Below are positions 28,332-43,578 of a stretch of DNA of 64,000 nt, piece after piece (the first letter of the stretch is position 1; each line of letters opens with the position of its first letter). The stretch is from an uncultured delta proteobacterium. Lineage in GTDB: Bacteria > Desulfobacterota > Desulfuromonadia > Geobacterales > DSM-12255. The stretch is taken from contig CAWBBV010000006.1 in assembly GCA_963787125.1 (NCBI GenBank), forward strand, positions 128,001-192,000, given 5' to 3'. Below the pieces are notes generated by a model. It was not told the DNA's origin and searched no databases. It saw nothing but the letters and a program-made list of their open reading frames with translations. Both the position numbers and the translations under genes were made by a program.

Positions 28332-30572
28332 ATGAATATCATACAAAATATGTATTTTAACTTAACCCCCTACATAATTTTGCCACTCCTCTCAGCCTTG
28401 ATAAATGCCATACTGGCAGGGATTGCACTTCGTGAGAGGAAAGTTGCCGCTGCTACCCCAATCTTCTGGATGACACTCAGCCTTTGTATCTGGTCTTTGG
28501 CATTTTCCATCGAAACCGCATCCAACGTTTTAGAACTTAAAATTATCTGCCGTAAAATCGTGGCAACATCCAACTGCCTCATTGCCCCTGCCCTGATCGC
28601 ACTTGCCCTGGAAGTAACCAGCCTCAAAAATTTACTAACCAGACGTCTTATTCTACTCCTCAGCGTAATCCCGCTACTGTCAACACTGCTTTTGTGGACG
28701 AGTGACCTGCACAACCTGCAACTCTACAGCTTCCATACTCACCGTAGCGGGGCACTACAACTGCTTGACTATGCCCAGGGAAATTTTTTCACCCTGGGGC
28801 ACTATTATTACATTCTGGCCCTCTATTTCATAGCCATCGCCATCTTCTTTTCCGGCTACTGGCGCTCGCCCCGCAGTGAATGGATTCGCTTTACCTACCT
28901 TATCAGCGCAGCACTTATTCCCCTTTTGATTGAAGTTTTCAAGATAACTCCGCTTGAGGGTTTTAACTTCACCTCCTCAACTTTTTTTATCTCGGGAGCT
29001 TTATACTTTACCGCAATATTCCGTTACCGATTGCTTGACCTCGTCCCGATTGCCCGCGAAACGCTCATTGAGCTAATGGCTGATCCGGTTATCGTTGTTG
29101 ATCGCTATGGCCAGGTTGCTCTGGCCAATCAGGCCGCGCGGACAATGTTCATGCTCCCCAAAGACCCGACCGGCGTTTCATTCGCGTTATTGGAAAATCA
29201 CTACCCGCTCATCGCGGAATTTATTTCTGATCTTGCTGATCATGGTGAAGAATGCATCTTAAAGGATGGGCCGGAGCAACGTTCCTGGCAATTCATCAAG
29301 AGCCCCATAGCGCCGCAGGGCGTTCATCAAGGCTGGATAATCACCCTGAAAGACATCACCACGCTCCGAAGCGCCAACGAAGCTCTCCAGAAAAGTAATG
29401 AGCTTCTCACCACACTGTCGCTGGCAGTGGAGCAGAGTCCAATTTCCATAGTCATCACCGACTTGAATGGCAATATTGAGTTTGTTAACCCGACATTTAC
29501 CCAGGTAACCGGCTATAGTCAGGAAGAAGCATTCGGACTTAATCCACGCATTCTCAAGACTGAGCTAACCTCGCCGGAACTGCACAAGAACCTCTGGGAA
29601 ACCATAATTGTCGGCAGGATTTGGGAAGGCGAACTCATTAACAAAAAGAAAAACGGAGAAGTTTTTACCGAGCAGGCAAAAATAGCACCTATTAAGGACA
29701 GAAAAGGAAACATCCGACATTATATCGCCTTCAAAGAAGATATAACGGCGCGAAAACTGGTTGAAAAAGAACTTAATCAACTCAACACATCCCTGTTGGG
29801 ACGGATAGACGAAGAGTCAAGGCGGCGGATGGAGCAGGAACGCTTACTGGCAAATCAGGCCCGGCTGGTAGCCATGGGCGAGATGATCGGTGCTATTGCC
29901 CATCAGTGGCGGCAACCTCTTGCCACCCTGGCGATGATTGTCCAGCGGATGCATGCTGTCGGTACCATGCAGAAGTTGACTGTTGAACAGCTCACTGAGT
30001 TCAAAGATAATGCCATGCGACAGATAAAATATATGTCTGACACAATTGAAGAATTTCGCAGCTTTTACAGTAAAGACAAACATACTGAAAAATTCTCTCC
30101 CTACACCTGCATAACTAATGCAGTGCGGCTCTTTGAGCCTCAGTTTTCCGGCAGCAACATCAAGGTAGAGATAAATGCGGCAAACACTTTCGATCTGCAA
30201 GTCATGGGCTTTCCCAACGAATTCAAACAGGTTGTTCTCAATCTGCTCGGCAACTCTCGTGATGCAATTGCCGAGTCCCGCACAACTGCGGGAAGGCCAC
30301 AGAATGGGCGCATCGTCATAGACATCTCCATACCGGCTGATAATCTGATGCAAATTGACGTTAGAGACAACGGCGGCGGCATTCCGGATACGATCGCCAA
30401 TCGAATATTCGACCCCTATTTTACCACCAAGGAAGACCGTGGCGGTACCGGCATCGGCCTCTACATGTCGCGCATGATCATGCAGGAAAGCCTTGGCGGT
30501 TCGCTCAGGCTCATTAAAACAAAAGAGGGCGCCGTCTTCAGGATAAAACTGCCGCTGGGAGAATTAACATGA
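28332..30572 (+). CDS. Sensor histidine kinase (7TM N-terminal domain, two PAS domains, HisKA, HATPase)
   Basis: About 7 TM segments, PAS motifs, H-box AIAHQWRQPL, N-box, DNGGGI, FDPYFTTK, GTGIGL. Confidence 0.93.
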   Translation: MNIIQNMYFNLTPYIILPLLSALINAILAGIALRERKVAAATPIFWMTLSLCIWSLAFSIETASNVLELKIICRKIVATSNCLIAPALIALALEVTSLKNLLTRRLILLLSVIPLLSTLLLWTSDLHNLQLYSFHTHRSGALQLLDYAQGNFFTLGHYYYILALYFIAIAIFFSGYWRSPRSEWIRFTYLISAALIPLLIEVFKITPLEGFNFTSSTFFISGALYFTAIFRYRLLDLVPIARETLIELMADPVIVVDRYGQVALANQAARTMFMLPKDPTGVSFALLENHYPLIAEFISDLADHGEECILKDGPEQRSWQFIKSPIAPQGVHQGWIITLKDITTLRSANEALQKSNELLTTLSLAVEQSPISIVITDLNGNIEFVNPTFTQVTGYSQEEAFGLNPRILKTELTSPELHKNLWETIIVGRIWEGELINKKKNGEVFTEQAKIAPIKDRKGNIRHYIAFKEDITARKLVEKELNQLNTSLLGRIDEESRRRMEQERLLANQARLVAMGEMIGAIAHQWRQPLATLAMIVQRMHAVGTMQKLTVEQLTEFKDNAMRQIKYMSDTIEEFRSFYSKDKHTEKFSPYTCITNAVRLFEPQFSGSNIKVEINAANTFDLQVMGFPNEFKQVVLNLLGNSRDAIAESRTTAGRPQNGRIVIDISIPADNLMQIDVRDNGGGIPDTIANRIFDPYFTTKEDRGGTGIGLYMSRMIMQESLGGSLRLIKTKEGAVFRIKLPLGELT

Positions 30573-31950
30573 ACGATCTGAAACAACTGAGCATACTGCT
30601 GGCTGAAGATGAGGACGAACTGCGTCGGGAGACCGCCGCCTTTTTAGAACTCTACTGCGGTAAAGTCTATCAGGCGGCAAATGGTCGTGAAGCGCTGCAA
30701 CTCTTTGAGCAGAACAGGCCGGATCTGGTTATCAGTGACATCAGAATGCCGGTCATGGATGGACTTGAACTTGCTACCAAACTGAAAAACCTTGCGCCGG
30801 AAACACCTTTCATCTTCTGTACCGCCTTCTCCGAAACTGTTTACCTGCTGAAAGCCATTGAGCTTGGTGTAGCGGCCTTTATCCGCAAGCCGGTAGATAC
30901 TGATCAGCTCCTGGACATAATCTCCAAAGCGGCGCTACCGACACTCCAACGCCGGGAAATCAGGGAGCTTTCCGAAGAATTGATAACGTCAATAGCCGCT
31001 CAGCTTGGCGGTGGTACCGCGCAGGAAGCTGTTGCCACACAGGCTGCCAGGGTAGCGCAAAGCCCGTTTTCCATTCTTCTCCAGGGTGAAACCGGCACCG
31101 GCAAATCCCGCCTGGCAGGTATCATTCACTCTCTTAGTCAAAGACGTAAGGGCCCGTTTGTCACGGTACAACTGGGCGCAACTCCTGAACAGCTGGTGGA
31201 AAGCGAGCTTTTCGGTCATATCAAAGGATCATTTACCGGCGCTGATCGCACCAGAACCGGCTTGATCGAAACAGCCGCCGGTGGCACCCTTTTTCTCGAC
31301 GACATCGAAACCACTCCAGCCGCAGTACAAGCTAAACTTCTCCGGTGCGTCGAGGAAAAACGCTTTACCCCGGTTGGCAGCAGTAGTGAAAAAATTGCTG
31401 ATGTCCGCATCATTGCCTCCAGCAATCGGAACCTCAAAGAGTTGGCCCTTAACAGGCTGTTTCGCGAAGACCTGTACTACCGCCTGGCAGACTTTACCCT
31501 CCGACTCCCGCCGTTACGGGAGATGCCCGAGAGTGTTCTGCCGATGGCTCTTACTTTTCTGCGTGATACCTGTGGCGAACTGGAAAGAGATGTCCCTCTC
31601 ATTGACGACGCCGCAGCCTTTCTCCTTACAACCATGCCGTGGCCCGGCAACATTCGCCAACTCAAAAGCGTCATCCGGCAAGCCGCCCTCTCAGCCGGAG
31701 ATATCCTGACTTCAGCTGATATTGCCGTTGATATTGATTTCCATGCCGCGCTCAATACTTCTCCCCCCCCTCCGACCTCGCCACCCCGCCACCCTTTCCC
31801 TGTGAAATGGACGTCCTTGAAAAATGGTCACTGGAGCAGGCGCTGCTTTTCTGTGGCGGCAAAAGAATGAAAACTGCCACCATGCTCGGGATGAATTACT
31901 ACACCTTCCGCAGACGCCTGGAAAAACATGGCATTGCTGAGAGTGAGTGA
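30569..31950 (+). CDS. Sigma54-dependent response regulator (REC-AAA+-Fis HTH), frameshifted near 31763-31770
   Basis: REC (SDIRMP), GETGTGKS, ESELFGH..GSFTGA, WPGNIRQL; the Fis-type HTH LEQALLFCGGKRMKTATMLGMNYYTFRRRL lies in the -1 frame and ends at the TGA at 31950. Confidence 0.88.
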
Positions 31951-32493: not shown

Positions 32494-32593
32494 ATACACC
32501 CCCACATAAACAGATTAATTCACATAATTCAGTACTTTATCATCCAATAGCAATACAAATCAATCGGCAATTCCACCCCCTCCCCCACTTTTA

Positions 32594-32622
32594 CTATCTA
32601 TTTCAGCTATCTGTTTTAGCTA
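32594..32622. repeat. 13-bp tandem repeat, candidate upstream activator site
   Basis: CTATCTATTTCAG / CTATCTGTTTTAG / CTA about 100 bp upstream of the sigma54 motif. Confidence 0.4.
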
Positions 32623-32664
32623 CCCACCAACAACAAAATCCGCCACACCTCACACTGCCACAGG

Positions 32665-32677
32665 CAACATACTGATA
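32665..32677 (-). promoter_or_regulatory. Candidate IHF binding site
   Basis: Minus strand TATCAGTATGTTG fits WATCAR-N4-TTR, between the candidate enhancer and the sigma54 motif. Confidence 0.5.
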
Positions 32678-32703
32678 TAGCAGCACTTTTTACTATTATC
32701 GCA

Positions 32704-32720
32704 TTGGCACGGTTACTGCT
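32704..32720 (+). promoter_or_regulatory. Sigma54 (-24/-12) promoter of the DUF11 operon
   Basis: TTGGCACGGTTACTGCT (GG-N10-GC) downstream of a sigma54 activator gene. Confidence 0.8.
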
Positions 32721-32723
32721 CTC

Positions 32724-32933
32724 ATGAAAGCTATGGACAAGCCAACCAAAACATCAAGCAACGACCTGGCGCTTCACTTGTGTGTCTATGCCGTCATGCC
32801 TTTTATGGACTGTTACTGCCAGAAAATCACCGGCAGCTCTATCCCTAAAATAGCTAAATTCTGCATGACAGGTAATAGTGACTGCCCGGTTTTCGAGAAA
32901 ATAGTTGCCAAAAAAGTCAGGCAGGCGGCGTAA
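32724..32933 (+). CDS. Small Cys-rich hypothetical protein (start may be 32733)
   Basis: Five cysteines, C-x9-CYC-x14-C-x6-CP, directly after the promoter. Confidence 0.55.
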   Translation: MKAMDKPTKTSSNDLALHLCVYAVMPFMDCYCQKITGSSIPKIAKFCMTGNSDCPVFEKIVAKKVRQAA

Positions 32934-33043
32934 GAACTGACGATCTTTCAACCCCTCCACGGGGGTACAAAAGATCATCATTTTCAGCCGAGCGACCTCT
33001 TGATTTCTTGGCAGCTCAATTAACTAATTAGAAGGAGCAGCAG

Positions 33044-33154
33044 ATGGAAGGATACAGAATTTCAAATAAAAACAGACTGAACCAGCGTCACCCCCCCGTC
33101 CCCGGAGGTGGCGGGAGGCCGCCGAGCTGTGCCGGAGATGCTGCTCGCCGGTAG
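33044..33154 (+). CDS. 36-aa leader ORF MEGYRISNKNRLNQRHPPVPGGGGRPPSCAGDAARR
   Basis: Strong GAAGGAG RBS at 33031-33037; manual translation; below the ORF-track size cutoff. Confidence 0.5.
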   Translation: MEGYRISNKNRLNQRHPPVPGGGGRPPSCAGDAARR

Positions 33155-33227
33155 CAAGATGCACATAATCAATTTGATTGCGGGTAAATATACTTTAAGT
33201 AAAGAAACAGTATGAAGGAGACAAAAT

Positions 33228-33728
33228 ATGAACAAAAATTTCGGAAAAATTCTTTCAATATTTGTAGCGCTTACCCTTTTGGCTCTACCGCTGGCAGCCT
33301 GGGCAGAACCGAAGGTCGCCATCTCCGTCAAGGCGGAAAAAGAGGTTACGGTTACGGTGAAAGGTAAAGCAGTTAAAAAGAAGATTGTGGCCAAAGGTTT
33401 TCTGCCTGGAGAAGAGATTATCTACACTCTGAGCTATGTCAATTCAGGAACTGAGCCGGCTAAAGATGTATTCATCACCGATCCGATACCGGCAGGCACC
33501 AGCTTCATCCCCGGCAGCGCCAGCGATGCAGACAAGGCGACTTTTTCGATCAACAACGGCAAAAGCTACAGTAAACCGACTCTGTTGACCTACGAGATCA
33601 AGTCTGCTGATGGAAAATTTCAGAAAAAAGTAGCAGCGCCTGAAGAGTATACCGACATCCGCTGGACGATCCCATCTGTCCCGGCAGGCGGGAAGGGTTC
33701 AGTCAATTTCAGGGTAAAAGTGAAGTAA
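33228..33728 (+). CDS. Single-domain secreted DUF11-like protein (putative chaperone)
   Basis: Signal peptide ending AWA, PGEEIIYTLSYVNSG, ITDPIPAG, ends GSVNFRVKVK. Confidence 0.85.
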   Translation: MNKNFGKILSIFVALTLLALPLAAWAEPKVAISVKAEKEVTVTVKGKAVKKKIVAKGFLPGEEIIYTLSYVNSGTEPAKDVFITDPIPAGTSFIPGSASDADKATFSINNGKSYSKPTLLTYEIKSADGKFQKKVAAPEEYTDIRWTIPSVPAGGKGSVNFRVKVK

Positions 33729-33777
33729 TCACCATTAAAAGAAACAGTACCGATGAAAGGAGACTCTTATGAACTGT

Positions 33778-33861
33778 AGAAGCAGAGCCAGACCGCCGAC
33801 GAATACTTCAGGCATCGGATCGACAACGGAGAAAAGAAGCAGGGCGCGACCACCGACGAAT
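33778..33861 (+). repeat. 27-bp direct repeat encoding RSRARPPTN twice
   Basis: 33778-33804 vs 33835-33861: four differences, all synonymous. Confidence 0.85.
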
Positions 33862-33942
33862 TTGCAGGAACGAGGATCACCGATGAACAGAAACCATGAA
33901 ACATACACAGACAGTACAAAGAAAATCACAAAGGAGAACGTC

Positions 33943-35436
33943 ATGAGAAGCACACAAAGCAGTTTTCTTCACAAGCAGCGAGCCCTGCTGGGCCTCCTGG
34001 CACTGGCAGCAACAGCTGTTGTCGGCATGCCGGTCAGCGCCTCAGCCAGCTCGACCGCAGGCACGACCATCATGAACCACGTCACCGTCAACTACAAGGA
34101 TGCCGGCGGGTTCAACACCTACAACGCCGACGCCACCACCATCGTCACCGTCAACCTGGTTATGGCGCCTCTCACCCTCAGCGCTGCACCAGTAGGCAAC
34201 GCAGCACCCGGAGCTCTTTCCTGCACATCCATCGCCACCAACTACGCATCCGGCAGCACGATCAATTTCCTCTATGCTATGAGAGCAAATGCCAACGGTG
34301 CTGACACCACCGGCGGCGGCACCAAGCTCTCCATGGCGAACACGCCGGCCAACACCAACAACGTCACGGTCAACTACTCAACCCTTGACTACACGGGGGG
34401 GAGCCCGGTTGCAAATCCGGCAACCCGGATTTTCGGCGCTGCCATTCCGACCGCCGTCCTCAGCGAAACACAACTGCAGTTCCCGGGCGGCGCCCTGTCA
34501 GGCTTTGCAGTCAATGACCTCGTTGCCGTGCCCACATCTGCCGGCGTAAGAGTCTACCTGGTAACCGCTGTCAGCGTCGGAGCAGCACCGGTATACAGCC
34601 ATACCGGCAATACCACCTATACCGACGTCGGCACTTTTGTAGGCGGCGCTAATCACGTCGAAACCAAGGGAACTCTGACCCTTGGCGCCTGGGCTACCCA
34701 GTCGATCACCCTGAACGGATCCGCCACAAGCTTCGGCGGCACCCCGGCTCCGACCCTTGCCACTGGCAACACGTTAACCCCCAATACCCCGATCGGCGAA
34801 ATGGTACTTGTCAAGGTTGACGTCTCAGCCAACAACAGCAACCTGCTCGCCGGAACCGTCGACTTCACCCTGACCACGACCGACAGCGCAAGCGGCAACC
34901 CCGCAACTGCTCCATGTACTGCCGGCACGTTCCAGGCGCCGACGCTCAGTATCAAGAAAGAGGCCAGCAACTTCACTGCAGCACCCGGTACTTTTGGTGC
35001 AACCGCAACCGGTAACCCCGGCCAGATCCTCGAATACCGCGTGACCGTCACCAATGCCGGTGGTCAGGCAAGCCTGGTAAATGTCTCCGATGCAGTGCCG
35101 TCATATACCTCCCTGGTTACCGGGTTAACGTACGGCACCGGCGCAGGGACGATCTTCGCAAAAGTAACTGACAATGCTGCACGAACCGTCGAACTGACCA
35201 CAACCGTCGATTCGGAAACACAGCCGGTCGGCAACAAGCTGTCCTACGGCGATGCTGCCGGGACAGCTGCACTCTCTGCGTTGAAATTCTGGATGGGAGA
35301 CACCGCAACCAACGCAGCAGGCGGTAAGCTCCCCTACTGCAGCTCCGGCGCTTTCACCACTTCAGCAACCTGCACCGGCGGTGGCGGAACCTGGATAACA
35401 ACCCTGACGATCCTCTACCAGGTAAAAATAGACTAA
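33943..35436 (+). CDS. Secreted DUF11-like fibre subunit 1 (alternative in-frame start at 33769)
   Basis: AAGGAG RBS, signal peptide ending ASA, N-terminal AGTTIMNHVTVNY, C-terminal LSIKK...PGQILEYRVTVTN...VSDAVP...ILYQVKID. Confidence 0.85.
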   Translation: MRSTQSSFLHKQRALLGLLALAATAVVGMPVSASASSTAGTTIMNHVTVNYKDAGGFNTYNADATTIVTVNLVMAPLTLSAAPVGNAAPGALSCTSIATNYASGSTINFLYAMRANANGADTTGGGTKLSMANTPANTNNVTVNYSTLDYTGGSPVANPATRIFGAAIPTAVLSETQLQFPGGALSGFAVNDLVAVPTSAGVRVYLVTAVSVGAAPVYSHTGNTTYTDVGTFVGGANHVETKGTLTLGAWATQSITLNGSATSFGGTPAPTLATGNTLTPNTPIGEMVLVKVDVSANNSNLLAGTVDFTLTTTDSASGNPATAPCTAGTFQAPTLSIKKEASNFTAAPGTFGATATGNPGQILEYRVTVTNAGGQASLVNVSDAVPSYTSLVTGLTYGTGAGTIFAKVTDNAARTVELTTTVDSETQPVGNKLSYGDAAGTAALSALKFWMGDTATNAAGGKLPYCSSGAFTTSATCTGGGGTWITTLTILYQVKID

Positions 35437-35492: not shown

Positions 35493-36770
35493 ATGAAAAA
35501 GTCGATGCAAATATTAATAACTGCGCTGTTCCTGTCGATTATGACACTTTCAGCGAGCACCGTTCTGGCGTATACAACTGCGTCCAACACCCAGATCATA
35601 AACACTGCAACGCTTAACTTTACCGGCGGCACGGCAACAGCCAGCGTCGTTGTAACTGTTGGCCTGATTCCGTCTGCGCCGGCACTCGCCATCACTAATG
35701 GCACTTCCGCCTATACTGCCGCCAACACTCCAGCCATTATTGACAGCCTCTCAATCACCTCCAGCGCCAACGGCCCGGCGCAATACACTGTCAGTGCTCT
35801 GGCAAGCGCAGTTGCCAACTCTAATCTGGCACTCAACTCAGCGATAACTGTTGCGCTGCCAAATCCGATCACCATCGGCGCAACCATCACTAATGCCAGC
35901 ACCACATGGGGAACCCTTAAAGTCCCTTCCGACGGCACTGCCGACTCAATAGTCAACAATATCCAGCTCAACTCCTGGATCACCTTTAACGTCGGCACCG
36001 GCAACATTACCAGACAGGTACTTTCTGTAACTGACCCTGGCACAACAGGGACTGCAACCATAACCTTTGTCACAGCCGGTGGAGATCCTGCCACAGTCCC
36101 GGCCGGTACGCCAATCTATGAGAAGGTTTTTGTAAATCTCACGGTTGTTCCCGGAACAGTCGCTACCCCCGGAACTCCGATCGACGTGACCGTAACTGCA
36201 ACAGTTGCAACACCAGGCGTAGCAGTCAGCCCAACGATTACAAATGGTGCACCCAACCATTGGACAACCCCCCCTGCCGGCGTAACAATCGACAAATATG
36301 TGCGTAACGCCACAACTGATGCGTCTACTTTTTTCATAGCACCAGGAGTAGCGCCGTCACCATACAGCACCACTATTAACGGGGCAACCCACAACTACTA
36401 CAGAAGTACTTCTACCTCCGGTGTCAGTGCCAAACCGGGTGAAGTTCTCGAATACCTCGTTGAAGCTACCAATACAAGCGGCCCACCATCTGCAGTCCCT
36501 GCCATGGATATTGCCGGCTGTTTCATCACCGACGCACTCCAGACAACCTATGTCACTCTTACCCTCGGCCAAATGTCCGGCGGCAAAGACCTCTGGTACA
36601 TTCCACCTGCTGGCGGAGTTGGCGCTAACTACAACATAGCCGATCTCGGCTCTTTTGTGTCGCCGACACTCTCCGTGAACGTTGGCAACGGCGCCGGGGC
36701 AGGAGCAGCTACAGGAACCATTCCGGCCGGAAAGAAAGTCTCGATTCTTTACCGTGTAACCGTGCTCTAA
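35493..36770 (+). CDS. Secreted DUF11-like fibre subunit 2
   Basis: Signal peptide ending VLA, N-terminal SNTQIINTATLNF, C-terminal TIDKY...PGEVLEY...ITDAL...ILYRVTVL. Confidence 0.85.
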   Translation: MKKSMQILITALFLSIMTLSASTVLAYTTASNTQIINTATLNFTGGTATASVVVTVGLIPSAPALAITNGTSAYTAANTPAIIDSLSITSSANGPAQYTVSALASAVANSNLALNSAITVALPNPITIGATITNASTTWGTLKVPSDGTADSIVNNIQLNSWITFNVGTGNITRQVLSVTDPGTTGTATITFVTAGGDPATVPAGTPIYEKVFVNLTVVPGTVATPGTPIDVTVTATVATPGVAVSPTITNGAPNHWTTPPAGVTIDKYVRNATTDASTFFIAPGVAPSPYSTTINGATHNYYRSTSTSGVSAKPGEVLEYLVEATNTSGPPSAVPAMDIAGCFITDALQTTYVTLTLGQMSGGKDLWYIPPAGGVGANYNIADLGSFVSPTLSVNVGNGAGAGAATGTIPAGKKVSILYRVTVL

Positions 36771-36804: not shown

Positions 36805-39800
36805 GTGCTTATAACCCGGACTCAAAATTTCTGTAGCAGGATCAGCGGCTCATTCGCCGCTGCCCTCCCCCGTATATCGGGTGGCAACGACGCAACTGCG
36901 CCTCGCCATGCTACAGAGGTTCGTCCGGTTCATTCGCACGGCAATAACACCATGAAGTGGCTCTGGACGGCGCTCTTCCTCATCTGCCTCGCGCCGTTCC
37001 AGGCCATTGGAGCAAGTAATAACACCCAGATCGTAAACAGAGCACAGCTCAATTCTGACGCCCCTGCAGCAATCGCAACCAATGTGGTAACGCTGCAGAC
37101 GGGCCGCACAGCCTCAACAGTAGAATTCCTCAAATATGCGCCCGGGGTTGCAGGCACCGTCAACACTCACGTCGGCAACAGCTATTACAAGGACTCTTCC
37201 GCTGCATTTACTCCGGTAAATAACCCGGTTGCGGTCGGTACAGGCACCCCCATAGACCTGTCAGCCCCTGTGCCACTTATGAAAACAACCATGTATCACG
37301 CCGGTGAACCGCTTTTTGTCAAGGTAACCGACCTGGATCAAAACCTGGATAGAACCGTCGCGGAGACCGTTCTGGTAACCCTCACAGACAAAACCACCGG
37401 AGACACCGAAGTTCTCAGAATCACTGAAACCGGCCCCGATACGGGCATCTTTATCGGCTACATCCAGACAGCATCTACCGCTGCTAACGGCGCCGGCAAC
37501 GGAGTGCTGACTGTTTCCGAGTCAAGTTCCATCGATGCTCATTATGTCGATACCGTTGACGGCACGGACAGCTCCGCTGACGCAGCGCTTGTAGACCCGT
37601 TCGGGATACTCTTTGACACCATGACCGGCAATCCGGTTGACGGCGCAACGATAGAACTTTTGAACGCCGACGGCACAGCTGCCACTGTTTATGGTGACAA
37701 CGGCCAACCAACCAACAGCTATCCGAACAAGGTAATATCCGGCAGCACGGCAAAAGACGCCGAAGGCAACACCTACACCTTCACTCCGGGTGGCTACAGA
37801 TTCCCCTACGTAAATCCGGGGAGCTACATCCTGAAGGTAACTCCGACCAATAACTACAGCTCCCCTTCAACAGCCACTACCCAGTCCATCCAGGTGCTGC
37901 CGGGCGCTCCTTATGTCATCCTTGAGCCGGGTTCACGGGGTGAAACCTTTACCGTACCTGCCGGCCCGGCCATACGGGTTGATATTCCGCAGGACCCAAA
38001 AATCGGCACTCTCTGGCTCACCAAAAGTCCCGGCAAAGGTATCATCTCCGCCGGAGAGCGCCTTAACTACGACCTTACTCTCGAAAACAACTCTGCCGTG
38101 GGAACAATTTTTTCTCCGGTGATTACCGATATACTTCCACCAGGCTTCCGCTATGAAAAGGGCTCTACCAGAATCAACGGCACCGCTGCCCCTGACCCAT
38201 CAATCTCGCCGGACGGCAGCAGCATGACTTTTGCTCTCGCCACTATCCCGCCAGCAACTACCATCACACTCCGCTATGTGGTTGGTATCGGCGCCGGCGC
38301 CAAAACCGGTACAGCAACAAACATCGCTTTTGTCAATGCCGCCGCGGCGGTGAAATCCAATATTGCCAAAGCTGCGGTTCTTGTCCAGGAACCGTTCATG
38401 CAGAGCCGCAACATTATTATGGGGCGGGTTTCAGTAGGCGTTTGCGGTGACAACGGTGATGACAACAAAAAAGGGATGGCAGACATCGGCATCTATCTTG
38501 AGGATGGTACTTTTGTCATGTCCGACAGGTTCGGCATGTTCCACTTTGAAGGGGTACAATCCGGCTCGCACGTTGTCCAGTTGGACCTGGACTCTATCCC
38601 TGAAGGGTACAAAATCCTGCCATGTGAGCAGAACAGCCGCTTCGCAGGTCGCGCTTACTCCCAATTCGTTGATCTGCAGGGTGGGACAATGTGGCGCACA
38701 GACTTCTATCTTGGCAAAGATCTGCTCACACAACCTACGGCAGTTGCGTCAACAGAAAAAAGCACAGCAGCAGGCAGGGGTGCTGAAGCGCAGCCTGCCA
38801 CTGAGGTTGCCACTCAGATTGCTTCTGTAGAGAAGAGCTCGGCAGCAGATTCAAAGCTGGCCGCAGCCAGCGTTAAAGGTTCTGACACTGCCACGCCGGT
38901 AAATTACAAAGGTGAGATTAGTCTGGAGATGATCAGCAGCCAGAGCGGAGACTTCATCGATTACCGTATTCCGCTACAGACAGCAACAGTGCCGTTAACC
39001 AATCTACGCCTCACGGTTACGCTGCCGGCGGGAGCCATTTATGTCAAAGGGAGCAGCAGTCTTGACAGCGCTGCACTCACCGACCCCACAGTCATTGCCG
39101 GCAGAATCCTCGCCTACCAGCTCGGCGCTACCGGCGCCGACTCGCAGCAAGAGCTCCGTTTCCGGGTAACTATCGACCGGAAAGCCAGGGGTGGCGAACT
39201 GCAGACAAAAGCCGGCCTTACTTTTGACAGCCCGGCGACCAAAGACATTACGGCGCCCGCTGTAGACAATCTTCTTTCTCTCGTTAAAGAAGAAGGCCGG
39301 CTGGCACTGCCGAAAATAGTTATCCGGCCTCAATTCCCGACCTTTGGCGCCGAATTGAGTGAGGAAGATCGCAAGCAGCTTGATGAGCTTGCCCAGATGC
39401 TCGCTCGCTTTAAAATTGACCACATTGACGTAGTCGGTCATACAGATATAGTCAGGATCGCACCACGCAGCCGTAACATTTACGCTGACAATACCGCCCT
39501 CTCCTTTGCCAGAGCAAAAAGCGTCGGCCGTTACCTGACCGCAGCTCTCCATCTTCCACCCGAAAGCCTCAACCTGAGCGGCAGCGGCGAAAGAGAGCCG
39601 ATTGCGACCAACAAAACCGCTGAAGGCCGGACCCTGAATCGGCGTGTAGAGGTTAATGTCTCGGCAGCGCAAACTATCGAAACTTCCAGACTCACGATTA
39701 CCAAGGAAAGAAGTGGGCTGAAAAAACAGGATACCACCGGCGTAACTATGAAGCAGACCGGTGAAGAGCTGAACAACCTCTCCCCGCTGCAGCCGAAATA

Positions 39801-42800
39801 TGAAACCATGGTTGTGCAGCCAGCGTCCAATGCCACAGAAACCGTCATTGCTGCCGGGAATTCAGCCTCAGCAGCCCCACTGCAGCAGGTTGCCCGGCAG
39901 GAAAAGATGGCAAAGCAGGAAACAACCAGCACACAGAAAAACACCTCTGCTTTAATCCCTGCAAAAAGTGAAGAACACGTTGCACTGTTCTCGGCCATCA
40001 ATGAAGGGGTTGTGCACTACCGGCTCAAACTGGTCAACATTAAAGAGCCGCTGAAAAATGTTACCGCGACCCTGATAACACCAAAGAGCTTCCTCTACGT
40101 GACCGGCACCAGTAAGCTTGCCGGGCTCTCTATAGCCGATCCGGCCTCAACTGAAGCGGTAGTCAGCTACAGTTTCACCCAGCTGCAGGATGCGAAGACG
40201 TTTGACGTTACTCTCCAGGCACTGATTGACGGCGATGACAGAAATGAAGCGCTTGGCAGCAGTGTCACGGTTGTCATAGCAGACAAAGATGGCAAGCCTC
40301 TGAAAACCTACACAGCTACAGCTGAACTCTCTGACAACATGGAGGATATCAATAAGCAGGATATTCCGGTCACAGCGCCTGTAAATGCGGCTGCAGCGGA
40401 GAATAACGAGAAAGAACCCGGCATTAAAACCAATGAGCAGCTTTACGAGTATATCGAGAAAGTCGCTTTAAAAACAAAGGACGCAAAAACAGATGCAGCA
40501 GTTACTGATAGCGGGCTCCATGTAAAAGAGATGGAGGGGATCCTTTCACCGGCTGACACCTCTATTCTCGCTACCAGGATCAACGCGGTCAGGATTGTTC
40601 TGAACTCTGCCTTGACTCCGGTTTTAACCGTTGACGGCAAAGAGGTTTCCGCCGAACGGATCGGTTTCAGCATGAAGGATAAAGAGTCCGGCAAATCCCT
40701 TTATACCTATATCGGCGTTGATTTTGGTGAGGAGGGGGAACATCTTCTTCAGCTTAAAGGGGTGGACGGCTTCAATGTTGCCCGGTTTGACAAAACCGCT
40801 AAAATCACCAGAACCGGCGAGATTGCCTCAATCAGGCTTGTTTCTGCCGAAAATAACATTGCTGACGGTAAAACCCCGGTCCGGGTCAGAGTCCAGCTGT
40901 TTGACAAACTGGATAAACCTGTCCCGGCAAACGCCGAACTTTCTATCAAGGGTGGTGATCTGAAGGTTATCACTATTGGCGAAAGCTATTCCAGAACAGC
41001 CGGCAACGCCACGGTAACTGTTGCTGAAGATGGCTGGATCAGCTTTGCACCGGTCACTTCCAGCGGTCTATACCGGACACACCTCGCCTACAACAAAGCT
41101 GAGATTGACATCGAGACCTACGTCAAACCGAAGATGCGTGACTGGATTCTCGTTGGTTTGGCTGAAGGCACTGCCGGTTATAACACTGTCTCCGGCCATA
41201 TGGAAAACCTGAAAAACTCGGGTGAGGAAGACCATCTTTACGACAAAGAGCGGCTGGCGCTGTATGCCAAAGGGACGGTCAAGGGTGAATGGCTCATGAC
41301 CATGGCTTATGACAGCGCCAAGAAAAACACCGGCGTCGTCGGAAACGGGCTCTTTCAGACCATCGACCCTAACTCCTACTACACTATCTATGGCGACTCT
41401 TCAGCACAGATGTACGATTCTGCCAGCCAGAGGAAACTTTACTTAAAGATCGAACGTGAGCAGTTCTATGCCATGTTCGGCGATTACGATACGGGTCTGA
41501 CCTTTACCGAACTATCACGTTACAGCCGCAGAATGAACGGCGTCAAATCGGAATACCGCTCAAAAAATTACGACGTTACGGTTTTCGGCAGTGAAACCGG
41601 CCAGTCATTTGTCAAGGATGAGCTCCGCGGCGACGGCACTTCCGGTCTGTATCGGCTCAGCAAACAAGGGATTGTCCTTAATTCCGAGAAGATCACTATC
41701 GAGTCCAGGGATAGATTCCATAGTGAAGTTATCACCGAGACCAGACAGATGAACCGTTTTGTCGACTACAGCATTGATTACGACACCGGCGCCATTTTCT
41801 TCAAGAGTCCGGTTCCGAACAGAGACGAGAAACTTAACCCGGTTTACATTATTGTCGATTACGAGATCCTGAATGCAGGTAAAGATGCCTTAACCTACGG
41901 TGGCCATGCAGCCACCAGACTGATGAACGGCAAGCTGCAAGTCGGCGGCACCTATGTCCATGAAGGCCACATCAGCGGTTCAGGCAATTTATATGGTGCG
42001 GATGCAACAGCCATTCTGGCGCCAGGGACAAAGGCAAGAGCCGAGTTTGCCGCCACAAATGACGATACCGGTGTCAAGAAGAGCGGCAATGCATATCTGG
42101 CAGAAGTTGTTCATACCGGGAAATCGATTGATGGCAAGGTCTACTTCAGGGAGCAGGAAGAGGGCTTCGGCCTTGGCCAGCAGAAAGCCAGCGAAGGGGG
42201 CACCCGTAAATTTGGCGTCGAAGCCGCTTACAGGCTGAACAATAAAGTTACGTTGAATTCCCAGGGGTATCGGCAGTACAACCTGTCTACCGGCGCAGTC
42301 AGGGACTTTGCAGAAACGCTTGCCTCCTACAATGAAAAACAGTACACCTTGAGAACCGGAATCCGCTATGCAAACGACACCCTCCCTGACGGCACCAATG
42401 CAACATCAGTTCTGGCAACTGCCGGCGGCAGCTGGAAATCTGCCGATCAAAAATTGACCCTGCGTGCCGACCATGACCAGGCTCTTTTCAGTAAAAATAT
42501 CAACACTGACTTCCCTACCAGAAGCGTTCTCGGCGTTGATTACCAGGCAACAAAAGCTGTCACGCTCTTCGCCCAGGAAGAGCTTACCTACGGCGCCGCC
42601 GCCAATACCAACACCACCAGAGTCGGAGTTAAATCTACCCCCTGGAGCGGCGGCACCGTTAACTCTTCAGTTGTGAATGACATACGGGAAAATGGTGAAA
42701 GAACTTTTGCCAATGTAGGTTTAACCCAGAAATGGCAGCTCAACCCGCACTGGGCTGTAGATGGTGGTCTGGATCACAGTGAAACCATCCATAAAAAGAT

Positions 42801-43578
42801 CGGCTATACCATGAATGCCAATGTTCCACCGGCTTCAGGCGGAGAGGACTTCACCGCCGTCTCTTTAGGCGCAAACTACACCGAGAAAAAACTCACCTGG
42901 TCAAACAGAGCCGAATACCGTAACAGTCGCACTGATGACAAATGGGGACTGGTTTCCGGCCTGATTAACGAGCAGGGGCTCAACTGGGGTTGGACAACCA
43001 GATTGCAACTGTTCCATACTCAGTCTGTCGGCGGCAACAGCAACACTAATGCAGACTTGAGATTCGGCCTTGCTTACCGGCCACCGGTGACAAAGTGGAT
43101 AATTCTCGATCGCCTCGACCTTCTGGCAACCGATACGAAGACCGCCACTTCTTCCACTCTGGGGAAACGTCTCGTCAATAATTTAAACGCCAACTACAAA
43201 CCGGACAAGAAAACACAACTCTCGATCCAGTATGGCGCAAAATATGTGCTGGAGAGTATTGATGACAAGGATTACAGCGGCTACACCGATCTGATCGGAC
43301 TTGAAGGTCGCTATGACATCACCAAGGAGTGGGATATCGGTTTAAGAGCTTCACTGCTCCATACCTGGGCAATTGACCAGTTCAAATACAGCCTCGGCTC
43401 TTCCGTCGGCTACAATGTCACGGAAAACGCCTGGCTCAGCCTCGGTTACAACTTTGCCGGTTTCACGGACAAAGACTTTTCAGCGGCAAATTACACAGCA
43501 CAGGGGCCTTTTGTCCAGTTCCGCTTCAAGTTTGACCAGAACTCGGTCAAGGACGGCTTAAAGTCGTTGAACCAGTAA
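36805..43578 (+). CDS. Very large outer-membrane protein with DUF11 domains, an OmpA-like peptidoglycan-binding domain and a C-terminal beta-barrel region (likely start 36952)
   Basis: Signal peptide MKWLWT...AIG, one complete DUF11, VVGHTD...LSFARA..V...NRRVEV OmpA motif, long amphipathic beta-strand C-terminus ending QFRFKF... Confidence 0.88.
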   Translation: MLITRTQNFCSRISGSFAAALPRISGGNDATAPRHATEVRPVHSHGNNTMKWLWTALFLICLAPFQAIGASNNTQIVNRAQLNSDAPAAIATNVVTLQTGRTASTVEFLKYAPGVAGTVNTHVGNSYYKDSSAAFTPVNNPVAVGTGTPIDLSAPVPLMKTTMYHAGEPLFVKVTDLDQNLDRTVAETVLVTLTDKTTGDTEVLRITETGPDTGIFIGYIQTASTAANGAGNGVLTVSESSSIDAHYVDTVDGTDSSADAALVDPFGILFDTMTGNPVDGATIELLNADGTAATVYGDNGQPTNSYPNKVISGSTAKDAEGNTYTFTPGGYRFPYVNPGSYILKVTPTNNYSSPSTATTQSIQVLPGAPYVILEPGSRGETFTVPAGPAIRVDIPQDPKIGTLWLTKSPGKGIISAGERLNYDLTLENNSAVGTIFSPVITDILPPGFRYEKGSTRINGTAAPDPSISPDGSSMTFALATIPPATTITLRYVVGIGAGAKTGTATNIAFVNAAAAVKSNIAKAAVLVQEPFMQSRNIIMGRVSVGVCGDNGDDNKKGMADIGIYLEDGTFVMSDRFGMFHFEGVQSGSHVVQLDLDSIPEGYKILPCEQNSRFAGRAYSQFVDLQGGTMWRTDFYLGKDLLTQPTAVASTEKSTAAGRGAEAQPATEVATQIASVEKSSAADSKLAAASVKGSDTATPVNYKGEISLEMISSQSGDFIDYRIPLQTATVPLTNLRLTVTLPAGAIYVKGSSSLDSAALTDPTVIAGRILAYQLGATGADSQQELRFRVTIDRKARGGELQTKAGLTFDSPATKDITAPAVDNLLSLVKEEGRLALPKIVIRPQFPTFGAELSEEDRKQLDELAQMLARFKIDHIDVVGHTDIVRIAPRSRNIYADNTALSFARAKSVGRYLTAALHLPPESLNLSGSGEREPIATNKTAEGRTLNRRVEVNVSAAQTIETSRLTITKERSGLKKQDTTGVTMKQTGEELNNLSPLQPKYETMVVQPASNATETVIAAGNSASAAPLQQVARQEKMAKQETTSTQKNTSALIPAKSEEHVALFSAINEGVVHYRLKLVNIKEPLKNVTATLITPKSFLYVTGTSKLAGLSIADPASTEAVVSYSFTQLQDAKTFDVTLQALIDGDDRNEALGSSVTVVIADKDGKPLKTYTATAELSDNMEDINKQDIPVTAPVNAAAAENNEKEPGIKTNEQLYEYIEKVALKTKDAKTDAAVTDSGLHVKEMEGILSPADTSILATRINAVRIVLNSALTPVLTVDGKEVSAERIGFSMKDKESGKSLYTYIGVDFGEEGEHLLQLKGVDGFNVARFDKTAKITRTGEIASIRLVSAENNIADGKTPVRVRVQLFDKLDKPVPANAELSIKGGDLKVITIGESYSRTAGNATVTVAEDGWISFAPVTSSGLYRTHLAYNKAEIDIETYVKPKMRDWILVGLAEGTAGYNTVSGHMENLKNSGEEDHLYDKERLALYAKGTVKGEWLMTMAYDSAKKNTGVVGNGLFQTIDPNSYYTIYGDSSAQMYDSASQRKLYLKIEREQFYAMFGDYDTGLTFTELSRYSRRMNGVKSEYRSKNYDVTVFGSETGQSFVKDELRGDGTSGLYRLSKQGIVLNSEKITIESRDRFHSEVITETRQMNRFVDYSIDYDTGAIFFKSPVPNRDEKLNPVYIIVDYEILNAGKDALTYGGHAATRLMNGKLQVGGTYVHEGHISGSGNLYGADATAILAPGTKARAEFAATNDDTGVKKSGNAYLAEVVHTGKSIDGKVYFREQEEGFGLGQQKASEGGTRKFGVEAAYRLNNKVTLNSQGYRQYNLSTGAVRDFAETLASYNEKQYTLRTGIRYANDTLPDGTNATSVLATAGGSWKSADQKLTLRADHDQALFSKNINTDFPTRSVLGVDYQATKAVTLFAQEELTYGAAANTNTTRVGVKSTPWSGGTVNSSVVNDIRENGERTFANVGLTQKWQLNPHWAVDGGLDHSETIHKKIGYTMNANVPPASGGEDFTAVSLGANYTEKKLTWSNRAEYRNSRTDDKWGLVSGLINEQGLNWGWTTRLQLFHTQSVGGNSNTNADLRFGLAYRPPVTKWIILDRLDLLATDTKTATSSTLGKRLVNNLNANYKPDKKTQLSIQYGAKYVLESIDDKDYSGYTDLIGLEGRYDITKEWDIGLRASLLHTWAIDQFKYSLGSSVGYNVTENAWLSLGYNFAGFTDKDFSAANYTAQGPFVQFRFKFDQNSVKDGLKSLNQ

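Follow-up and report, generated by a model that had tools for sequence, protein, structure and literature searches.

Ahead of the major subunit gene of a DUF11/OmpA-domain surface-fibre operon, an upstream ORF of 38 codons (33769-33882, plus strand) was found which we regard, with a probability of roughly one half, as a translated member of an old family of short leaders that acts in cis as a ribosome-pausing leader without a secretion sensor. The parts of this reading differ in strength. That the leader is translated and that selection acts on its peptide is very probable, as the pattern of base changes suggests; judged by comparison of related loci, bona fide arrest cores occur at the homologous place in other members of its family. 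Pausing at its own RARPP motifs, with an effect on subunit synthesis or on mRNA life, we infer by analogy. All positions refer to the window, i.e., the whole stretch of 64,000 nucleotides that was analysed; L, G and P numbers denote loci, genomes and protein records, respectively.

The features of the leader all lie on the plus strand. Its Shine-Dalgarno sequence, AAAGGAG (33756-33762), was read directly and is separated by a 6-nt spacer from the ATG at 33769-33771. This start is in frame, with no stop codon between, with the ATG at 33943, where the signal peptide begins and which has an AAAGGAG of its own (33930-33936). A third in-frame start, absent from the original prediction, lies at ATG 33883 behind GAGGA (33872-33876); three modules of RBS and ATG therefore stand in series, each with a spacer of 6 nt. 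Sequence comparison indicates that the leader ORF proper is a doubled 19-codon unit whose last residues are ERGSP. The codons of RGSP (33871-33882), which is the third R-[A/G]-x-P unit of the leader, double as the Shine-Dalgarno sequence of ATG 33883, and ERGSP runs straight into that ATG with no stop codon after the Pro. The second module (33883-33942) consists of 20 hydrophilic codons ahead of the signal-peptide Met. Counterparts of 16-20 residues with a similar sequence are found in frame in five other lineages (P0002, P0003, P0044, P0097 and P0099/L093), and the true N-terminus of the subunit may lie at ATG 33883, or two starts may be used. Subunit 1 itself (33943-35436) has 497 aa and comprises a signal peptide and a DUF11-type repeat (TIGR01451, 25.7 bits). 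Public collections hold this form as P0001 and also a 555-aa form starting from ATG 33769 (33769-35436) as P0052 (sources NCBI and ENA), which is probably a fusion of leader ORF and subunit. By itself, the open frame says little: T is scarce in the leader (18 in 174 nt), and 9.8% of shuffles with matched composition lack stops as well.

The nonapeptide RSRARPPTN is encoded twice, at 33778-33804 and at 33835-33861. A script comparison placed the differences between the copies at repeat positions 9, 12, 13 and 18 (AGA/AGG, GCC/GCG, AGA/CGA and CCG/CCA). All four are synonymous in the leader frame, and in none of the other five frames are all four silent. The chance that four random substitutions are all silent in the leader frame is 0.0032 without transition bias and 0.0040 with kappa 3, or about 0.02 once six frames are allowed for. 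Identity is 23/27 inside the block compared with 12/30 in the 30 nt after each copy (Fisher P = 0.0009, with block edges that were chosen post hoc). In the whole 4.2-Mb genome, no site beyond the two copies matched the 27-mer with up to 6 mismatches, and a six-frame scan of the genome found RSRARPP at no other position. The distance from copy to copy is 57 nt, or 19 codons, and the 38 codons of the leader are exactly twice the 19-codon unit. The second copy of the motif is absent from the other motif leaders examined (L005, L003/L093, L047, L054, L055, P0003, P0050 and P0037). The motif occurs twice in the window because the 19-codon unit was duplicated. From the comparison of loci, the ancestral ORF appears to be one of 18-22 codons, of which the window holds a tandem doubling of 19 codons. 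Other leaders of the family contain repeats of their own: in Geomonas-type leaders (L006/L081, L082, L085, L088, L034 and L035), tandem 9-nt units of the CAGCAGTAA, CAGCAGTAT and CAGCACTAA kind, about 3 to more than 12 per leader, lie between a mini-ORF of 3-4 codons and the subunit start, and 6-nt repeats occur in the leaders of other lineages (L009 and L038). The leader region of the subunit gene thus appears to be a hot spot of tandem duplication, the 57-nt doubling of the window included.

Relatives provide the single-unit versions. A genome of the same genus (G001, loci L002 and L005), whose subunit is 60% identical to that of the window (55% over the best segment), shares this layout but contains the motif only once. 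The ORF of L005 reads M-N-N, then RSRARPP and, four residues on, ERGSP; this ORF extends over the start of the subunit gene in a different frame. In the blocks that the window shares with L005 (MN, RSRARPP and ERGSP), there are five base differences and all five are silent. In a third genome of the genus (G003, L003/L093), a 22-codon leader carries RIRARQP, and its stop codon overlaps the ATG of an in-frame 19-codon module that is the counterpart of the 33883 module. Since three topologies occur within one genus while the peptide start is kept, the leader is a separate ORF rather than a mere N-terminal part of the subunit; the RARQP of L003 also means that neither Pro-Pro nor R-A-x-P is strictly conserved. 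Two proteins with subunits 73% identical to that of the window (P0003 and P0050) share an identical start of 19 residues up to ERGSP and diverge right after it, and P0037, whose subunit is 45% identical, retains SRARPP at its beginning. L005, P0003 and P0050 are all single-unit versions of 19 residues to ERGSP. For RGSP, the codons differ in L005, L009 and L043.

Subunit 1 has 49 homologues in a large protein collection, with Geomonas and Desulfuromonadaceae among the named sources. A protein search with the leader alone gave no match, one with residues 1-60 of the long form matched P0003 only (E 0.027), and in an exhaustive search of representative proteins, none of 109 matches aligned from the first 20 leader residues. 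The N-terminal extensions of the homologous proteins were found by reading their sequences.

The observations on which the original prediction was built stand. The strong AAAGGAG at ATG 33769, in frame with the RBS and ATG of 33943, was confirmed by direct reading, and the duplicated RSRARPPTN with its four silent-only differences by script. Selection on the peptide, which had been deduced from these differences, is borne out by relatives in which the upstream ORF retains both frame and peptide while its codons change silently, even where it takes a different frame relative to the subunit gene. This is the opposite of conserved nucleotides without a conserved frame, the pattern that had been named as counter-evidence. 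The claim that the leader is not a SecM-type secretion monitor also holds, as its 58 residues (up to the signal-peptide Met) contain no hydrophobic stretch.

The family extends well beyond the genus. Sixty-five loci, the window included, were grouped into 36 clusters at 70% subunit identity, one of which has truncated leaders. The most widely kept feature is an RBS-led upstream ORF as the first element after the small DUF11 gene, found in 32 of the 35 clusters with a complete leader; by a looser test on representative leaders, a comparable RBS and start codon were present in 24/26, against 8.8 expected from shuffles. The ORF has at least six codons in 24 clusters. Many of these ORFs are free-standing, with 18-22 codons and a gap of 45-126 nt to the subunit start; others continue into the subunit gene or end on its ATG. 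The leader frame is continuous with the gene in P0003, P0050, P0037, L009, L044, L004 and L066. In three loci with subunits only 34-37% identical to that of the window (L047, L054 and L055), ORFs of 19 codons carry RSRARP or RSRTRP at the same codons, 4-9. The opening of the peptide, M-x-x-RSRARP, recurs both in the same-genus genome and in these distant lineages. Leaders of 19-22 codons that end with Pro-stop were found in L010, L011, L016, L043, L047, L054 and L055, and one of them ends with GSP-stop. Across lineages, the codons of the motif vary silently: Arg is AGA, AGG, CGA or CGG, Pro uses all four codons and Ala three.

The most serious alternative is that the leader serves to load ribosomes or to stabilise the mRNA, as a 5' stabiliser or a stand-by site, with a peptide that is not active in the exit tunnel and a conservation that reflects nucleotide or codon constraint. 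The wide retention of RBS and start agrees with this, and in eight clusters only a mini-ORF of 2-5 codons is present; these come mostly from 16 genomes of one genus, with loci that match named Geomonas records. As such mini-ORFs cannot act through the exit tunnel, ribosome loading itself is suggested to be part of the function. The window and the very distant L054 share 17 consecutive nt within the motif, and GGA is the only codon used for its Gly; some selection may therefore act on the nucleotides as well. The leader RNA folds worse than shuffled sequences in both the window and L005 (z = +1.2 and +1.8), which also agrees with this alternative. However, nucleotide constraint does not account for the silent-only differences between the copies and between the window and L005, nor for the free variation of Arg, Ala and Pro codons across lineages, and RAGP and RGPP, which proteomes avoid, are enriched in these leaders. 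We consider this alternative unlikely.

The same folding results, together with a search of 32500-35000 against Rfam at a permissive threshold that returned five chance-level matches only (E 2-10, far below the gathering scores), make an RNA-structure switch unlikely in this clade. A riboswitch or attenuator was dropped for this clade, as no stable fold was obtained. SecM-like unmasking of a hidden RBS is likewise unlikely here, given an unstructured leader RNA and the lack of an Rfam family. Binding of Hfq through (A-R-N)n or of CsrA through GGA was set aside, as both leave the silent-only substitutions unexplained. In some relatives, the upstream ORF is followed by C-rich, G-poor repeats, for which a Rho-loading (rut) role was considered. 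In two distant groups of leaders, A2 (L043, L011, L048, L053 and L058) and A3 (L047, L054 and L055), the last codons of the ORF and its stop codon lie in a small G+C-rich hairpin, with a second conserved hairpin about 25 nt after the first; compensatory changes were seen in only 3/22 pairs (A2) and 1/52 pairs (A3).

The peptide-level signal in the family is the R-[A/G]-x-P unit. It recurs as RARP, RGRP, RGQP, RGHP, RGKP, RASP, RGSP and RAGP, often two per leader, and was found in 15 of the 24 clusters with longer ORFs (RAGP or RGPP in 4, another form in 11). An earlier count of 9/14 against 0.65 expected is biased, because the pattern had been defined after the peptides were viewed. An unbiased test was made with cores defined in the literature (RAGP, RAPP, RGPP and RAPG), the expectation being taken from within-peptide shuffles. 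Such canonical cores occur in 4/24 clusters against 0.17 expected (Poisson P = 3e-5, for relatives that are not fully independent), namely L044/L045, which has both RAGP and RGPP, L052, L100 and L004. RAGP was also seen in the pre-signal parts of two protein records from two lineages (P0105 and P0116). From the signal peptide onward, the proteins of the family contain none in 48,454 residues, and the long ORFs of this genome contain two in about 717,000 residues. The window has RARP-P twice and RGSP, none of which is one of the canonical tetrapeptides RAPP, RGPP, RAGP or RAPG. R-A-R-P and R-G-S-P do match the RAGP register, with Arg at position 1 and Pro at position 4. The ORF stands on the same strand immediately before the subunit gene. 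Its RARP units occupy codons 6-9 and 25-28; RGSP closes the ancestral 19-codon unit, after which no stop precedes the gene. RARP and RGSP of the window are candidate variants, not validated arrest cores.

How far these variants resemble known cores can be judged from the excerpts of PMC12992588 used here. According to these, ribosomes stalled on RAPP-type peptides have the third core codon in their P site, and Pro occupies the A site. The core Arg is irreplaceable; Ala can be changed to Gly, and Ser, Asp or Pro is partly tolerated in its place. The third core position of ApdP accepts only Gly, and that in part. The same excerpts state that RAPP-like motifs are depleted from proteomes, that the small ORFs carrying them lie upstream of diverse genes beyond sec/yidC, and that these ORFs usually have a signal or membrane segment, with the motif near the C-terminus. 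The leader resembles SecM (RAGP), ApdA/ApdP (RAPP), ApcA (RAPG), the RGPP variants and CruR in being an upstream ORF on the strand of the gene that it would control. As in RAPP-like peptides, its Arg stands two or three residues before the prospective A-site Pro, and the exact cores RAGP or RGPP stand in homologous leaders of other lineages. Unlike those peptides, it lacks a signal or membrane segment on which a force could pull to release the arrest. The ancestral ORF has 18-22 codons, whereas the peptides in the literature mostly have 100-200 residues, and the motif stands at codons 6-10 rather than only at the C-terminus, with several motifs per leader.

Two further classes of leader share some of these features. 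TnaC is arrested at termination after a C-terminal Pro. The Pro-stop leaders of the family recall this class, and the one that ends in GSP-stop resembles the NSP-stop type; the excerpts of PMC10987492 describe leader classes ending in NSP-stop or NAP-stop (uA_NSP-stop and uDF_NAP-stop) that arrest at termination. In contrast, the frame of the window continues past ERGSP into ATG 33883 and the subunit gene. The short, drug-dependent leader peptides of erm and cat genes stall at a +x+ motif (Arg/Lys-x-Arg/Lys). The leader has in common with them that it is very short, that a stall would be expected within the first ten codons and that it contains overlapping R-x-R (RSRAR). It differs in that the downstream gene encodes a structural surface subunit and not resistance, and no drug dependence is implied. 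A search of full-text literature found no link between DUF11/TIGR01451 genes and leader or arrest peptides; the supplementary uORF lists of PMC12992588 and PMC10987492 could include the family.

Another explanation is that the leader senses EF-P or the supply of Pro-tRNA and so couples fibre production to translation capacity. Like sites of EF-P-dependent XPP/PPX pausing, the leader has Pro-Pro pairs, two in number; Pro-Pro-Asn occurs in L005 and P0037, where the window has Thr after Pro-Pro, and the genome has two EF-P family genes. In the part of PMC4176338 drawn on here, Arg directly before a proline run of three gives the strongest stall (RPPP). However, in the CadC reporter of the same excerpt, APP stalls and RPP does not, and RAPP-type arrest is described as refractory to EF-P in the excerpts of PMC12992588. 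Most homologous leaders lack Pro-Pro altogether, with a single Pro at that place in L047, L054, L055, L043, L011 and L003, so Pro-Pro is not conserved across the family. We therefore think that such a sensor is quite improbable. EF-P coupling is, for the same reasons, the most weakly supported part of the original prediction, which had classed the motif as Arg-x-Pro-Pro: in that register, RARPP reads A-R-P-P and lacks the first-position Arg that is irreplaceable according to PMC12992588 (excerpts). The more general claim of a stalling leader fared differently, as it gains from RAGP and RGPP in homologous leaders but not from the window's own motifs, which are not validated cores.

A start at 33769 or 33883 could instead yield a longer precursor, so that the repeat would be part of the subunit protein. 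The open frame, the 555-aa record, the in-frame arrangements in other lineages and the recurrence of the 33883 module are in line with an N-terminal extension of this kind. However, the same peptide is found out of frame in L005 and is ended by a stop codon in L003, and many lineages have the free-standing ORF that ends well short of the gene; a stop-free frame is also expected in about 10% of shuffles. We think that an extension is quite improbable as well. A neutral relic, i.e., a decaying duplicate of the 5' end of the gene with its RBS, ATG and basic signal-peptide start, is highly improbable, since the peptide is kept with only silent changes in two copies and across genera and RAGP or RGPP was acquired in several lineages, even though the three identically spaced modules, the tendency of family leaders to tandem repeats and the basic stretch MRTRAPSF that opens the subunits of L005 and P0004 and resembles the leader motif would all suit a relic.

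Returning to a pausing leader, the most economical mechanism would be pausing at R-A-R|P(-P), twice, and at R-G-S|P, because arrest cores sit in homologous leaders. The family appears to occupy one position, between the small DUF11 gene and the major subunit gene of the fibre operon. Its conserved element would be R-[A/G]-x-P near the peptide start, in the form of RAGP or RGPP in some lineages and of RARP with a second Pro here, and the nascent peptide is expected to slow peptide-bond formation to the incoming Pro. The register of the pause is set by analogy with the RAGP/RAPP cores in the excerpts of PMC12992588. In copy 1, the Arg codon 33790-33792 would occupy the P site and the Pro codon 33793-33795 the A site, or the pause would come one codon later; in copy 2, it would fall at codons 33847-33855. 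Ribosomes would then be parked at codon 8-9, at codon 27-28 and perhaps at codon 37, at sites 57 and 30 nt apart. The first site would be so near the start that a parked ribosome may block more loading at ATG 33769. Parked ribosomes may also limit read-through into the in-frame subunit gene, i.e., synthesis of the N-terminally extended protein. A short queue would cover the A-rich, unstructured leader to about 33895, with ATG 33883 covered and the RBS of 33943 left free, and the message would possibly be protected. A more elaborate version can be put forward only tentatively, although it is a real possibility. Here, ancient SecM-like R-A/G-x-P leaders of 18-22 codons without a secretion signal would be present in Geobacterales-type and distant lineages, and the doubling of the unit in the window would create three parking sites, from which a queue of ribosomes shields the message and gates the three in-frame starts.

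Most known SecM/RAPP-type arrest peptides are secreted or reside in membranes; the secretion machinery releases their stall and is, for the most part, also what they control. The family would place the same kind of core in tiny peptides without a localisation signal, before a structural surface-fibre gene, and the core in the leader appears to be conserved more deeply than the fibre protein itself. If the peptides stall, something other than a pulling force would have to release or tune the arrest, and the question is what. With RAGP, RGPP, RARP, RGRP, RGHP, RGSP and RARQP, nature would offer a ready mutational series for the third-position residues that permit arrest. The leader also offers a handle on the expression of an unstudied DUF11/OmpA-domain fibre operon.

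The small DUF11 gene (33228-33728, plus strand, 166 aa; Pfam DUF11 and TIGR01451) ends 40 nt before the leader ATG and lies directly upstream in most related loci that reach far enough; a scan for promoters and terminators between this gene and the leader found nothing. Downstream of subunit 1 are a second subunit-like gene (35493-36770), a 2257-aa protein (36805-43578) with DUF11 repeats, a central OmpA peptidoglycan-binding domain and a long C-terminal part, and, as a further member, a 1368-aa DUF7933/SpaA-like/DUF11 protein. The two subunit-like genes and the two large proteins together look like an uncharacterised surface-fibre assembly operon. Upstream, at 28332-31870, a histidine kinase is encoded together with a sigma-54 response regulator (30569-31870, with Sigma54_activat and Response_reg domains). 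A motif scan found a sigma-54-type -24/-12 promoter-like site with one mismatch to the consensus (32705-32720, plus strand) downstream of the regulator gene and about 0.5 kb upstream of the small DUF11 gene. As a possible operon promoter, this site is a lead only, because sites at up to two mismatches from the consensus are no more frequent in the window than expected (10 found against 12). A Cys-rich ORF of 69 codons (32724-32933) comes after the promoter-like site.

A second small ORF of 36 codons (33044-33154), with a AGAAGGAG site, lies upstream of the small DUF11 gene and contains HPP and RPP. Inside it, a G+C-rich block of about 23 nt (33095-33117) is identical in the same-genus genome G001 (L002 3793-3808, minus strand). 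Among 79 loci, this block occurs only in the window's own locus (L001) and in the two G001 loci, L002 and L005, and the ORF or the block may be another leader or RNA element.
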